Source: Planctomycetota bacterium (lineage in GTDB: Bacteria > Planctomycetota > SZUA-567 > H5-PLA8). Taken from it: a stretch of 64,000 nucleotides of DNA. Position numbers and translations under genes: made by a program. Positions within the stretch are counted from its first letter, which is position 1. The number at the start of each line of letters is the position of its first letter. This document shows positions 14,288-58,835 of the stretch, in pieces. The DNA lies in the NCBI GenBank assembly GCA_045863855.1, contig BTVV01000021.1:1-64000 (forward strand), in the 5' to 3' direction. A model generated the notes under the pieces. The model ran no database searches. It worked only from the letters and a program-made list of their open reading frames with translations, and was not told the origin of the DNA.

Positions 14288-15397
14288 CTATTTCGCCGCT
14301 TCGGGCTCGGGCTTGGCGACGGCTTCGACCCGCGGCGTGAGGTGCTTGCGCAGGACGGCCATCTGAGGGCGGTGCACGGTGAACTTTTCGGTGGGCTGGA
14401 TCGACATGGGATACTTGCCCCAATAGGTGCCTCCGGCCCAATACGTGCCGCCCATGCCGGCTTCGTTCAAGGCGCGCATGAAGTGTTCCAGCGTCTCTTC
14501 GTACCAGCGCGGGTCGCTGTCCGGCACGCCGAATTCGCCGATGAAACCGCGGACGTTATTCTTCTTGCACCAGGCGATGAAATCGCCGACGCGCTTCGCG
14601 CCGACCATCGCCAGGTCCTTGTTCTTCTCCAGTTCTTCGGCATAAGTCTTCTTGTACTGGCCGCTCATGTCCTGGTCGAAATAGCAGTGCGCTTCGTACA
14701 TGAAATTATTATCGGGATCCTCCACCCAGCTTGTCGCGCCGTTGTGCTTCTCCCAGTTGCCCGCGTTGGACCAATGATTGCCGGCGACGAGGATGAGCTT
14801 CTTGTCGGCGTTGGCGCGGATCGCTTTGACGACCACGTTGGAGATGGCCTTCCAATCGGCCTCGCCCATCCCGTGCGGTTCGTTCATCAGGCCGTAGCCG
14901 TAGACGGCCGGTTCGTCCTTGAAGGCCGTCGAGAGGCGGACCCAGAGTTCCGCGAGGTCGGAGGCTTTGACGAGGATCTTGCCGTCGTAGGGATGATCGA
15001 CGATGCAGCTCTTGGGCTGGCCGTCGACGATCATGCCGCGCCGGCCGTAGTCGTGGAGGTCGATCAGCACCATCGCGCCGTGGGTTTTGGCCCAGGCGAT
15101 GTTCTGCTTAAGCATCCCGAAGTAGCCGGCGTCGAGCTCGCCGCCAAGTTCGGGCTGCAGGCGGCCCCACTTCACCGGGACGCGGAAGACGTCGAAGCCT
15201 TGCTCGGCAAAGTACTTGAACGTCGCTTCGTTGTTGAACGTGTAATCTTTGTGGAGCGTGCCGCGGCCTTTGCCGAACTCGGGTCCGGCCAAGTTGACGC
15301 CGCGGCGATAGGCCGGCTCGGCGGGAGCCTCGGCGCTCGAAGCGGAAACGGCGGCCAGGAGGACCCAGGCCGATAGGATCAGGTTACGGACGGTCAT
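14288..15397 (-). CDS. Secreted glycoside hydrolase family 5 (cellulase-like)
   Basis: Signal peptide, GVNLAGPEFG, IDLHDY, LMNEPH (acid/base), YEAHCYFD and FIGEFG (nucleophile). Confidence 0.93.
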   Translation of the reverse strand: MTVRNLILSAWVLLAAVSASSAEAPAEPAYRRGVNLAGPEFGKGRGTLHKDYTFNNEATFKYFAEQGFDVFRVPVKWGRLQPELGGELDAGYFGMLKQNIAWAKTHGAMVLIDLHDYGRRGMIVDGQPKSCIVDHPYDGKILVKASDLAELWVRLSTAFKDEPAVYGYGLMNEPHGMGEADWKAISNVVVKAIRANADKKLILVAGNHWSNAGNWEKHNGATSWVEDPDNNFMYEAHCYFDQDMSGQYKKTYAEELEKNKDLAMVGAKRVGDFIAWCKKNNVRGFIGEFGVPDSDPRWYEETLEHFMRALNEAGMGGTYWAGGTYWGKYPMSIQPTEKFTVHRPQMAVLRKHLTPRVEAVAKPEPEAAK

Positions 15398-15792
15398 GCG
15401 CTTGCGGCTCCCGGTTGCGGTGATCTATCGAGTAGACGGGTGTGCTAACTGCTTCCGTGTCCCCAACTTCCTACACCGGCGCAGAACCGGCGTGGCGGCC
15501 GGTGCGATAATTAGCACGGGACTGGGGTTTGAAAAGAGCAGTAAGCCCCATACCTGGCATGGAGTGCACTCGTGCAAAGCACGTGTGAATTTTCTAGCAA
15601 CTTCTGCAAAAAATTACAGTTCACAGGTGACTTCCCGGCCTGTACATTCATCCCATCTACAAGTAAGCGCCTGCCTATTTCGGACTGGATACGGCGTTCC
15701 CTTATCGAAGCACACGCGCGTTAGCGCACCTGAGCGTTGCGAAGAACGGCCGGTTAGCGGCCAACGTGAGGCTTCTGCGGGGGAGTCGAATC

Positions 15793-16005
15793 ATGGTCAA
15801 ACACACGTGTAACGAGTGCCATCAGCCGTTGCCGCGCAACTGGCGGCCGGTGGGTACGCGGACGGTTTCGTCGGTATGCCCGAACTGTGCGGTGAAGCAC
15901 ATGAAGATGAAGAGCGAGCGCCGGCGCAAGGTGGCCGCGACGCTGACGCCGGCACCGGAAGCGGTGGACGCCGAGCCGGTGGTGGAGTCGCTCGAGATTC
16001 AATAA
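15793..16005 (+). CDS. Small CxxC...CxxC zinc-finger protein (70 aa)
   Basis: GGGGAG ribosome-binding site, CNEC...CPNC and a dedicated terminator downstream. Confidence 0.7.
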   Translation: MVKHTCNECHQPLPRNWRPVGTRTVSSVCPNCAVKHMKMKSERRRKVAATLTPAPEAVDAEPVVESLEIQ

Positions 16006-16031
16006 GCCGCCGGTTACACACTGGGTTCGAG

Positions 16032-16069
16032 AAGCCGCCGTGAGCGCAGGGCTCGCGGCGGCTTTTTTT
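16032..16069 (+). terminator. Rho-independent terminator
   Basis: AAGCCGCCGTGAGC-GCAGG-GCTCGCGGCGGCTT followed by a T-run. Confidence 0.9.
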
Positions 16070-16086
16070 GTGCTCAAAAAAGATCG

Positions 16087-16246
16087 TTGCTCGCGGGGTG
16101 CACGGAGCTAGTCTTTCGGGCGGCGCGCAGGGCGCCTCCCGTCCGCGGAAAGAGCAGAAGCTCGCCTGTGCCGGACCCCAATCGAAGCGACTCCCTTTCA
16201 GCCCGGCGCAAGCGGATCACGGGCAGGCACTCGAAAGGAGGTCGCC
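16087..16246 (+). promoter_or_regulatory. Putative promoter plus structured 5' leader (candidate cis-regulatory RNA)
   Basis: TTGCTC-N16-TAGTCT, then nested pairings 16138-16146/16212-16223 and 16168-16174/16203-16209, ending just before the AAGGAGG ribosome-binding site. Confidence 0.5.
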
Positions 16247-17485
16247 ATGACCACCCCGCCCACGGGGGCGCCACGCCCCTTGCCGGATCGTCCGGACCTG
16301 AAGCAGCTCAAGGACCAAGCCAAGGATCTGCTGCGCTCCGGCGCGGCGACGACGCTGGCGCAGGCTCAGTTTCAACTGGCGCGCGAGTACGGTTTCGCGA
16401 GCTGGCCGAAGCTGAAGCGGCACATCGAATCGCTGCATCGCACCGGACAACTGAAGGAAGCCATCGACGCCGAGGACTTCGCGGCGGTGCAGGCGTTAAT
16501 GACGGAAGACCCCGAACTGCACCGCGCGCCGCTGGGTTACGCGAAGAACGGTCCGCTGACGTGGGTGGCCGAATGCCGGGGCAAGCCCGGGCCCAGCGCG
16601 GCGCGGTTGGCCATGGCGCGCTGGATGATCGAACACGGCAGCGACGTGCATCAGGGCGGCGACGGTCCGCTGATGCGGGCGGCGCTGAACGACGCGCGCA
16701 TTCCGATGCTGGAACTGCTGGTGGCGCACGGCGCGGATGTGAACGCACGCTGGAACGGCGCCTATCCGATCGTACTGGCGAGTTGCGAGGCGCTGGCGCC
16801 GAAGGCACTGGCGTGGCTGCTCGATCACGGCGCCGACTTGAACGTGGCATCGCCCCAGTACGGCCGGCCGCTGGCGATGCTGTTGGGGACGTACGCACGG
16901 AACGCGCCGGCCAAGCAGGCGTGTCTGGCGGCGCTGGCGGCGCACGGGGTCGAGATGCCCGATACGCCGATGCTGGCGCTGCATCGCGGGCGCGCCGACC
17001 TGCTGGACGCGCACCTGAAGCGCGATCCGGGGCTGCTGGCGCGGCGCTTCAGCGAAGCCGAGATGTATCCGCCCGAACTGGGCCTCAAGCCCGGCGACGG
17101 CCTGTGCGTCACGCCGGTGGCGGATACGACGCTGCTGCATGCGGCGGTGGAGTTCCACGACGCGGCGATGACGGCGTGGTTGCTGGAACACGGCGCCGAT
17201 CCGAACGTCCGAGGGGCCGTGGATGCCGGCGGCTTCGGCGGGCATACGCCGCTGTTCCATACGGTGGTGACGCTGGGCGCGCATACGGCGGAATTGGCCA
17301 AGCTGCTGCTGGCGCATGGGGCCGATCCGAAGCTGCGCGCGTCGGTACGCAAGGCGCTCCGGGATATGGGCGACCCGGAGCTCGAGAAGCCGCGCGAATG
17401 GCGCGAGGTCACGGCGCTGGAGTACGCGCGCGCGTTCCACGTGCCGAGTTGGGTCAACGCGCCGGCCCTGGCGTTGCTGGAGTAG
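16247..17485 (+). CDS. Ankyrin-repeat protein with an N-terminal small helical module
   Basis: N-terminus LPDRPDLKQLKDQAKDLL...AQFQLAREYGFASWPKLK, and repeats LLVAHGADVN, LLDHGADLN, LLEHGADPN, GHTPLFH and LLAHGADP. Confidence 0.9.
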   Translation: MTTPPTGAPRPLPDRPDLKQLKDQAKDLLRSGAATTLAQAQFQLAREYGFASWPKLKRHIESLHRTGQLKEAIDAEDFAAVQALMTEDPELHRAPLGYAKNGPLTWVAECRGKPGPSAARLAMARWMIEHGSDVHQGGDGPLMRAALNDARIPMLELLVAHGADVNARWNGAYPIVLASCEALAPKALAWLLDHGADLNVASPQYGRPLAMLLGTYARNAPAKQACLAALAAHGVEMPDTPMLALHRGRADLLDAHLKRDPGLLARRFSEAEMYPPELGLKPGDGLCVTPVADTTLLHAAVEFHDAAMTAWLLEHGADPNVRGAVDAGGFGGHTPLFHTVVTLGAHTAELAKLLLAHGADPKLRASVRKALRDMGDPELEKPREWREVTALEYARAFHVPSWVNAPALALLE

Positions 17486-17556
17486 CCTGTACGAGCCGGC
17501 CGGCCGCGCGGAGGCAAGCTGGGATCTTCCGCGCGGCCGCCCGTTTGGCGGTGCAC

Positions 17557-17727
17557 TTAGAGCCACACACACAACCATCATCGGTCGTCTGCTTGCGGCG
17601 GTACTTCGCGGGACGCCATCAGGCTCAGGCGCCGGATGCTCGTCCCGATCCGGCTTCTTCGCCTTCTTTGTCCCGCTTGACCGGCGCGGCGCAGCCGCCT
17701 CGACGCAGGTTTTATTAGCGGCTCTTA
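17557..17727. mobile_element. MITE-like hairpin element, copy 2, flanked by TTA direct repeats
   Basis: TTA-GAGCC...GGCTC-TTA. It shares CGTCTGCTTGCGG and CGCGGCGCAnCCGCCT with copy 1, and the right TTA is the protoglobin stop codon. Confidence 0.6.
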
Positions 17728-18300
17728 GTGCCGCGCGTAGTGACGCACGATCAGATCGTTCTGCACCCACAAGAGTTTGTTGAAGGCGCGTAACGCTTTG
17801 CGCTGCGCGTCCGGGGGCAGGTTCAGGTCCAGGATCGCGTTGACCAAGGCATCCGAGACGAAGCCCATCAGCGCGTTCATCTGCACCAGCGGCACGTCGA
17901 TGTTCTTGTTGCCGAAGTCGCGCGTGTGAATTTTGCCGACCAGATCCAGGAACTCGATCATCTTCCCGTCGTAGGGTCCGGTGACCAGGCGCTTCAGGTA
18001 GGAACCCAGGTGCGCTTTGCGGAAGGCGATCTGGGGATGGTCGAGCGTCAGGGTTTCCAGCGATTCGGGAACGGCGCCTTCGTAGCCGAACTGCCGCGGC
18101 ACGAAGTGGCGCTTGGTGCAATCGTAGTTGAAAAGCTGGACGTAGATCGCGTCGACCAAACCGGGCACCAGCGGGGCTAGGAGCGGCGCAGCGCCAAGAA
18201 TCGTCTCGATGTCTTGCGCGTTCAGGCCCATGAATTCGGTGATGTACTGGAAGCGGTAAGGCAGGTCGGTTTCCAGACGGGCTTCGTCGATGCGCTTCAT
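17725..18300 (-). CDS. Protoglobin / globin-sensor family protein
   Basis: YITEFMGL, LVDAIYVQLF, FRKAHLGSYL, LVGKIHT (proximal His) and RAFNKLLWVQNDLI. Start placed at ATG 18300. Confidence 0.88.
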   Translation of the reverse strand: MKRIDEARLETDLPYRFQYITEFMGLNAQDIETILGAAPLLAPLVPGLVDAIYVQLFNYDCTKRHFVPRQFGYEGAVPESLETLTLDHPQIAFRKAHLGSYLKRLVTGPYDGKMIEFLDLVGKIHTRDFGNKNIDVPLVQMNALMGFVSDALVNAILDLNLPPDAQRKALRAFNKLLWVQNDLIVRHYARH

Positions 18301-57854: not shown

Positions 57855-58835
57855 ATGCGCATCGTGGACGCTCATATTCATGTGGATACCGACGACGATA
57901 AGGTGCTCGCGTTGTGCGACGAGCTGAACTTGAAGGTGTTGAACATCAGCGTGCCTTTGAACAACGAAGGCCGCTGGCGGAGCGTGCGGCAGGCGGCGTA
58001 CCGCCGCGCCGCGTCCAAGCGGCCCGACGCGTCGGCGTGGGTGACGGGCTTCGATCTGCCGCGCTTCGGCGATCCGAAGTACGCGTCGAGTTGCATCGAA
58101 CAGCTCGAGGCCGATTTCGCCGCCGGAGCCGTGGGCTGCAAGGCGTGGAAGAACATCGGCATGGAGGAGCTGAAGCCCGACGGGAGCTTCGTGCAGATCG
58201 ACGACGCGATCTTCACGCCGATTTTCCGCTGGCTGGAAGAGCACGACAAGACGGTGCTGCTGCATATGGCCGAGCCGCTGGCGTGCTGGCGGCCGATTCG
58301 CGAAGGCAAGCCGCACGCGGGCTACTACAAGGCCAACCCGCAGTGGCACATGTACAACAAGCCCGAGTATCCGGCGCACGAAACGATCGTCGCGGCACGC
58401 GACCGGCTGGTGGAGCGGCACCCGAAGCTGCGCGTCGTCGGGGCGCATTTGGCCAGCCTGGAGTGGGACGTCGACGAGATGGCGCGGCGCTTCGAGCGCT
58501 ATCCCAACTTCGCGGTGGACACCAGCGCGCGGCTGTGGGATCTGATCGAACAGCCGACCGAAAAAGTGCGTGCGTTCTTCCTGAAATACGCCGACCGGAT
58601 CCTGCACGGGACGGACGTGATCGTGCGCGGCGATTTCGCCACGGCCACGCCGGAGCAACAGGCCGGACGGTTGAAGGATCTGCGCGACGAGACCGCGGTG
58701 TATCTGCGCTACTATTCGAGCGCCGAGCCGGTGACGTACCAGACGAGCACCGCGCGCGGACTGGGGCTGCCGGAGAAGGTGGTGGAGCAGGTGACGAAGA
58801 CGAACGCTCGGCGCTGGTATCCGGGGCTGGGGTAG
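57855..58835 (+). CDS. Amidohydrolase family protein
   Basis: IVDAHIH, KAWKNIG, LLHMAEP, VVGAHLAS and RILHGTD. Confidence 0.9.
   Translation: MRIVDAHIHVDTDDDKVLALCDELNLKVLNISVPLNNEGRWRSVRQAAYRRAASKRPDASAWVTGFDLPRFGDPKYASSCIEQLEADFAAGAVGCKAWKNIGMEELKPDGSFVQIDDAIFTPIFRWLEEHDKTVLLHMAEPLACWRPIREGKPHAGYYKANPQWHMYNKPEYPAHETIVAARDRLVERHPKLRVVGAHLASLEWDVDEMARRFERYPNFAVDTSARLWDLIEQPTEKVRAFFLKYADRILHGTDVIVRGDFATATPEQQAGRLKDLRDETAVYLRYYSSAEPVTYQTSTARGLGLPEKVVEQVTKTNARRWYPGLG

Follow-up and report, generated by a model that had tools for sequence, protein, structure and literature searches.

The SAM-II, preQ1-II and cobalamin riboswitches act on translation and have a pseudoknot or kissing loop at the Shine-Dalgarno (SD) sequence, and ANTAR is a small helical RNA-binding output domain that is carried on varied sensors and acts both in cis and in trans on its cognate leaders, through an RNA target of twin hairpins. 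The E. coli alpha-operon leader is a double pseudoknot that is bound by S4, and in the S4 and S15 systems a pseudoknotted 5′ leader lies near the start region and the operon protein represses translation, also in trans (both as given in the available part of PMC3616713).

The DNA analysed here (the window) is a 64,000-nucleotide stretch of a Planctomycetota contig, and it contains a leader that would work like the protein-controlled S4/S15 leaders and follow ANTAR domain logic, and that is a member of neither. This regulatory RNA is real, widespread and uncatalogued, and it has a strong candidate for its protein partner, the N-terminal module of the protein encoded downstream. It shares with the S4/S15 leaders, as far as the available description of those goes, a pseudoknotted leader near the start, protein binding having been shown there and being predicted here; it differs in that there is no match in Rfam or in sequence, the protein is non-ribosomal, the structure ends before the start codon and the candidate binding domain is portable and occurs in fusion with many domains that are unrelated. 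Like the three riboswitches it has a compact, knotted 5′ core coupled to an SD-covering helix, but it has no Rfam match, no metabolic theme among the downstream genes and a strict link to one domain. The ANTAR likeness lies in the domain logic of a helical output domain (with predicted binding) on varied candidate sensors; in contrast to ANTAR, the candidate target is a double pseudoknot, the leader has no terminator, and neither the window protein nor 45 modules gave an ANTAR match in Pfam.

At the gathering threshold Rfam 15 gave 0 matches in the window and in 14 type I and type II loci (the two leader types are defined below), and by E-value there were weak matches only, mostly on the terminator (type II best E 0.005, 29 vs 60 bits); the Rfam check proposed in the preliminary description of the locus thus left the leader motif without a match. 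A literature search, mostly outside subscription papers, found no description of the leader-module pair. The accessible main texts of PMC5737381 and PMC11109978, searched by term, gave no matching motif, and the accessible supplements of PMC2864571 contain neither "ankyrin" nor "glyoxalase".

The leader and its conserved fold

The gene behind the leader (16247..17485, forward strand, as are all features in this section) encodes 412 aa from an ATG at 16247 and consists of the module (aa about 11-64, 16277..16438, placed by alignment, AF2 and hhalign) and separate ankyrin repeats, for which Ank_2 scores 60.7 bits against a cut-off of 27.3 (E 2e-16). The upstream small gene ends in a terminator-like hairpin (16034..16069; 12 bp, 5-nt loop, T7) that was read from the sequence; the strong terminator of the preliminary description is thus present as a 12-bp stem at 16034-16062 followed by 7 T, and it is absent from the list of a consensus scan. 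A sigma-70-like promoter, TTGCTC (16087-16092), N16, TAGTCT (16109-16114), follows at 16087..16114; taken alone it is weak, falling below threshold and unlisted in the consensus scan. Its position is what is kept among homologues: the best sigma-70-like match lies 24-32 nt 5′ of the leader word GTCCGC in 93/122 leaders, against 6.6 in shuffled sequence (26 nt in the window), which upholds the position of the promoter-like pair first proposed from the window alone. This spacing predicts a transcription start at about 16121, the foot of the first hairpin.

An alignment of 128 type I leaders, anchored on sequence alone (effective number 33), gave 4853 column pairs, all of which we ranked by corrected mutual information. 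The leader is doubly knotted, with five helices and two pseudoknots backed by covariation in these 128 homologues, and in the window it is arranged as follows: The 5′ hairpin P0 (16122-16126 with 16132-16136) is 95% paired and has two pairs among the top 8 of the 4853; its loop (16127-16131) is the 5′ strand of pseudoknot PK1 and pairs with 16165..16169 (ranks 2 and 6). P1 (16137..16149) is a stem of 2-3 bp, 16137-16139 with 16147-16149, in which CC/GG becomes AC/GT in a subgroup (one event on the tree), and its loop is the 5′ strand GTCCGC (16141-16146) of the kissing helix PK2. A conserved unpaired AA (16150-16151) stands just 5′ of hairpin P2 (16152..16163; 16152-16155 with 16160-16163; ranks 1 and 3). 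Hairpin P4 (16201..16224; 16201-16205 with 16220-16224; rank 4) holds in its loop the PK2 3′ strand GCGGAT (16212-16217), and PK2 is 99.8% paired. The last helix, P3, pairs an anti-SD strand (16187..16199) with 16233..16245, a strand that includes the SD sequence AAGGAGG (16235-16241) and stops 1 nt before the start codon; it is 91% paired, with two-sided changes at 5/10 pairs.

The top 8 of the 4853 column pairs are all canonical pairs of this model, with mutual-information z values of 14.7 and 11.4 (P2), 11.8 and 8.9 (PK1), 10.0 (P4), 9.4 and 7.1 (P0) and 7.7 (P1). When a tree was derived from this alignment, joint change exceeded expectation (p < 0.05) at 14/18 tested pairs, one PK1 pair having 10 pair-keeping same-branch changes vs 2.6 expected. 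In a structure-free alignment of 101 sequences P0, P1, PK2, P3 and P4 together were 95.7% paired, compared with 40-53% in slid controls. One row, L018, was mis-anchored and was left out of the tree test and of the comparison of cognate strands with those of relatives; in the latter the P2 cognate strand was better than the nearest relative's in 117/127, and the P3 cognate duplex (z −15.2) was better in 55 and worse in 41. P3 is the weakest helix under this relatedness control, and it is the least independent one because its core is also constrained as SD. The PK2 sequence was partly fixed by the search pattern used to collect leaders; compensatory swaps in it occur in copies that were found otherwise (L003, the second copy of L099, L177, L183, L185, L192 and L214). 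Judged by these comparisons, the leader is a structured, conserved and putatively cis-regulatory type with compensatory pairing.

Covariation upstream of module homologues had been proposed as a check on the preliminary fold, and the conserved pairing with compensatory change confirms that a real and conserved leader is there. The strings quoted from the leader, AAGGAGG at 16235-16241 and the ATG at 16247 are all where they had been placed, and across the 101 homologues its 5′ hairpin (16122-16136, 95% paired) and its TCCGC/GCGGA pairing (99.8%) hold; the SD-covering helix and both pseudoknots had been overlooked. A nested helix, GTGCCGG (16168-16174) with CCGGCGC (16203-16209), is 38.8% paired in the same homologues, about the slid-control level, and a CCCG/CGGG extension of the 16138-16146/16212-16223 helix has one pair broken in 80/98 sequences, and both were rejected on pairing across homologues. 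The segment AGCAGAAGCTC, thought to be unpaired, is a covarying hairpin, and the claim that the structure closes about 11 nt before the ribosome binding site is refuted by the conserved helix over that site itself.

Can the fold be recovered from the window copy by energy? It was not recovered by single-sequence folding: the leader folded singly is about as stable as shuffled sequence (z −0.32), so one sequence proves nothing about structure, and under a pseudoknot-free model the probability of P3 is just 0.04. Pseudoknot-free energies of the conserved nested fold and of the preliminary fold are alike (−40.3 vs −39.6 kcal/mol). The fold therefore rests on comparison, not on energy. One alternative helix that would leave the SD open, 5′ GGAAAG/CTTTC pairing with the anti-SD strand, was tried and was unsupported (z +3.4), and no SD-open helix was found in this single trial.

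A compact double-pseudoknot core that begins at the predicted transcription start and is joined to an SD-covering helix is also what a small-molecule or ion riboswitch would look like, with the core binding the ligand, P3 as its expression platform and the module a frequent passenger. The kissing helix and the adjacent purines are moreover conserved beyond the needs of pairing, although base swaps are tolerated in the kissing helix. We regard a riboswitch as unlikely, in view of these swaps and of the distribution of the leader described below.

The N-terminal module and its association with the leader

The module has about 55 residues with a variable insert and forms three helices, which AF2 places in the window protein at residues 18-31, 37-48 and 53-64 (pLDDT 77.6). 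Its net charge there is +4, vs −9 for the remaining protein; among 45 module members the net charge is positive in 44, Ala and Trp are invariant and Lys/Arg are conserved, two helix-1 K/R positions being kept in 45/45 and a third in 96%. At least 7527 longer proteins contain the module, and short module-only matches resemble truncated genes. With the 55-residue query the best Foldseek match had E 1.8 and the best VIA-align match Z 3.8 (rmsd 6.4, 51 aligned), and a PDB sequence search found no solved relative, a result that proves neither novelty nor difference. The Pfam matches of the 45 modules include no known RNA-binding family, and three unnamed ESM Atlas clusters (0.84-0.85) are leads only.

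In the preliminary description the module was set apart from the ankyrin repeats and said to be fused to varied C-terminal domains, and this is what we found: a domain scan of 42 of the 48 available full-length leader-bearing proteins gave ankyrin in 38, WD40 in 1, DUF1835 in 1 and no family in 2, and further module fusions with leaders carry LRR and TIGR03067, as well as VOC and Lon-N. The leader follows the module and not the ankyrin repeats; fusions with other C-terminal domains keep it.

The association holds in both directions of search. Starting from the protein, a module search found three paralogues in the window's own genome, eight loci from several phyla and more in relatives, and the leader motif was recognised by eye in 25/25 distinct upstream regions. 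Starting from the RNA, a two-word DNA pattern run on metagenomes gave at least 120 loci, and a module HMM built from the protein-first loci only found the module at most 260 nt downstream in 107/120 among the matches listed; of the 13 misses among these we read 6 as chance matches, 4 as contig ends and 3 as broken loci. In the window's own genome a sequence-only model found four strong copies, one before each module gene (the next match had E 0.06); all four were training sequences, so the weight of this result lies in the absence of further copies. Five other genomes gave 13/13 leader copies adjoining a module and 13/15 module genes with a copy (5 copies were training sequences), and within one acidobacterial order leader and module occur in the same 5 of 26 genomes and are both missing from the other 21. 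Among 31 genomes of the phylum 4 have both, 1 has the module and a diverged leader seen by eye, and 1 has only a weak, chance-like RNA match. The proposal that leader and module are co-inherited is thus borne out by the 107/120 matches and by the 5/26 genomes. Records with the leader come from Planctomycetota, Acidobacteriota, Gemmatimonadota, Armatimonadota and Pseudomonadota, and the leader-module family heads thousands of "hypothetical" or ankyrin proteins; it is rare for a new and widespread class of structured RNA to come with a candidate ligand that can be named.

No leader was detected at the module genes L188, L190, L195, L223 and G592. Erosion of the module after leader loss is mixed across these 5 cases, and two of the genes score well (80 and 182 bits), so leader loss does not always mean module erosion. 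Truncated leaders and broken module genes are frequent (L069:3145-3215, L083, L100 and L136), which suggests rapid gain and loss. In L099 two type I leaders stand back to back (1497-1644 and 1723-1852) and drive divergent module genes; the kissing helix of the second shows a double compensatory change.

The same association could arise if promoter, leader and the first ~55 codons were a portable 5′ cassette shuffled onto genes, with no contact between RNA and module and the RNA acting as a constitutive or a heat- or stress-melted translation brake. Recombination would carry leader and module together because they adjoin, and deletion remnants and tandem copies (L069, L099) and a patchy distribution with up to 4 copies per genome are in keeping with such shuffling. 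This seems quite improbable to us, since the association stays where adjacency is broken, by leader-MATE-module operons and by modules elsewhere in the genome (below), and two pseudoknots kept by compensatory change across phyla would appear to exceed the needs of a simple brake.

One-to-one pairing of RNA and protein would also be expected if the leader or a fragment of it formed a stable ribonucleoprotein or cleaved itself, SD occlusion being secondary, and nested pseudoknots with a kissing helix recall small ribozymes. We give such a structural or catalytic partner little credence: no Rfam ribozyme matches, the RNA is always a 5′ UTR with P3 over the SD and no terminator between leader and gene, and free-standing copies number 0/114 among the true or near-true RNA-first matches listed. 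RNA contigs of relatives (16131-16331 and 16152-16324) moreover continue from the leader into the gene; start and strand are not readable from these assembled RNA-seq contigs, whose shares are small, and the uncovered bin 16016-16092 was not used as evidence.

Type II leaders, PF20066 and possible control in trans

The window module scores 13.9 bits against PF20066 (Glyoxalase_8), under its cut-off of 23.7, and does not belong to that family by this measure; weak PF20066 matches occur in 18/45 modules (best E 1.8e-4). Profile comparison of the module with the PF20066 N-terminus gave an hhalign probability of 97.4 (E 1.3e-11), and on this profile evidence the module is homologous to that N-terminus, a relationship newly recognised here. 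The likeness covers the N-terminal ~55 residues and a leader of the same topology; the differences are that the window module stays under the Pfam cut-off, that P2 is placed elsewhere and that the PF20066 name implies an enzyme fold, which the helical part does not have. If the module binds RNA, a domain now mislabelled as part of a glyoxalase would gain a function.

PF20066 genes from Pseudomonadota gave the type II set (28 loci of 29 distinct, one near-duplicate being left out). A kissing pair around the word GGTGAA was found in 25/28 loci by pattern and in one more by model (26/28). In 24 loci the type II leader has the type I topology with 87% pairing and compensatory change at 14/23 pairs (PK1 6/6; PK2 100% paired, with 3 compensatory pairs); P2 lies at a different point of the core than in type I, and the anti-SD helix was seen by eye only. 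At their C-terminus the leader-bearing PF20066-type proteins have a VOC domain, a Lon substrate-binding domain or the PF20066 C-terminal part. A survey of 91 genomes gave 22 strong type II copies (most of them training sequences) in 20 genomes, all within the 21 that bear PF20066, and 21 of the copies precede a PF20066 domain and 1 a MATE gene; three weak matches in these genomes are chance-like. Another such match, in the window at 57891-58010 (E 0.0024), was set aside because it looked like chance. A motif directly upstream of glyoxalase-type genes is described as cluster #630,527 in the accessible part of bioRxiv 10.64898/2026.10.21.760802; type II and this cluster were compared by description only, and the cluster differs in that it also precedes monooxygenase and NmrA genes, which were not seen here, and in that the accessible text does not contain the word "ankyrin".

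The two leader types keep to their own domain types. Type I leaders precede a type II domain in 0/126 cases, type II leaders prefer the type II domain in 13/13, and type I leaders were missed in a sequence search with the type II model. A weak match to the module also occurs at the N-terminus of NCBIfam PRK05973 ("DNA helicase"). All 8 of 8 PRK05973 genes (L295-L302) have a different conserved leader, about 135 nt upstream of the gene, with a pyrimidine tract able to pair with the SD and just 3/29 compensatory pairs; 7/8 of these loci lack the type I/II kissing pair, and Rfam gave no match in 4 of them except a tRNA at a locus edge. This is possibly a third leader class.

Type II leaders also occur on genes that lack the module. 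The 41 genomes around G556, none of which was used in training, contain 18 leaders, spread over 14 genomes, and have the module in 15; all 14 leader-bearing genomes encode the module, and 0/26 module-less genomes have a leader. Thirteen of the 18 leaders precede a module and 5 precede MATE-like genes (MatE was confirmed for two of these proteins). In 4/5 leader-MATE genomes a second leader and module lie elsewhere; in G603 the leader is followed by the MATE gene and then by the module gene, the stop of the one overlapping the start of the other, and G227 repeats the leader-MATE pattern. Leaders on module-less MATE genes that are found only in module-encoding genomes fit a diffusible RNA-binding domain better than a cassette. 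The close kinship of the genomes weakens this argument in trans, as 13/15 nearest genomes have the module anyway and 3/5 MATE cases look like one clade. Loci with a type II leader directly before a MATE exporter gene include L260:612-757, L262, L282, L284, L287 and L294. In L294 a PF20066 gene comes after the MATE gene and its start overlaps the MATE stop, and L264 has the order leader, PF20066, MATE.

Exporter-type genes such as MATE are of the sort controlled by riboswitches, and that genes for MATE exporters and VOC proteins are driven directly by type II leaders speaks for a ligand-sensing RNA. Against it, the module is the sole chemistry common to the downstream genes, the leader is missing from the 26 module-less genomes around G556 and from the 21 others mentioned above, and RNA subtype tracks domain subtype.

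An RNA that covers the ribosome binding site and is confined to module-encoding loci or genomes suggests, from sequence comparison, a putative protein-RNA translation switch not described before, and binding of the leader by the module is the candidate contact because each RNA subtype goes with the corresponding domain subtype and because leaders that have no module in cis were seen only in module-encoding genomes. We slightly favour a switch in which the module binds the knotted core and keeps the SD helix shut, a negative translational feedback that the C-terminal domain could relieve. By comparison of homologues, the mRNA, which would begin at P0, folds into the PK1/PK2 core, with P3 able to hide the SD. 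The basic three-helix module would bind this core, probably near the kissing helix and the RAAG/GGTGAA purines, and the bound module would hold P3 shut, so that the protein represses its own translation; it may also repress other leader-bearing mRNAs in trans, for example those of MATE exporter genes. The swappable C-terminal part, ankyrin here, might in turn sense a partner or ligand or set protein turnover and so free the leader, a step that we propose with more reserve. Opposite polarity, in which binding of the module opens P3, is an alternative.

A broader reading, which we hold only tentatively as a whole, is that the module defines a superfamily of one-component translational regulators in which it would be the RNA-binding output domain, so far unrecognised as such. 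In such regulators ankyrin, LRR, WD40, VOC or Lon-N parts might sense a partner or ligand and the module might switch doubly pseudoknotted leaders in cis and, at MATE efflux genes, in trans, domain and RNA having perhaps co-diverged into at least two matched subtypes, or perhaps three if the PRK05973 leader is one of them. If the module binds RNA, this would be a case in which a portable domain signals by controlling translation, and it would offer compact, orthogonal repressors, each a pair of a 55-residue protein with a 130-nt RNA.

Neighbouring features of the window

The genes that flank this region, a GH5 cellulase (14288-15397) and a protoglobin (17725-18300), are both on the reverse strand, and no link of either to the leader was seen. 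The upstream small gene (region 15620-16005) is a Cys-rich, zinc-ribbon-like ORF of 70 aa with a promoter (15620-15648) and a ~130-nt leader of its own; RNA contigs cover it from about 15675 in three runs, and no conservation of its leader was visible in two relatives that are more distant. A ~173-nt palindromic repeat (17556-17728) lies between the ankyrin gene and the protoglobin gene; the genome has 8 further near-full copies of it (88-93% identity) as well as 5 partial copies, and it looks like a MITE or REP-like element.
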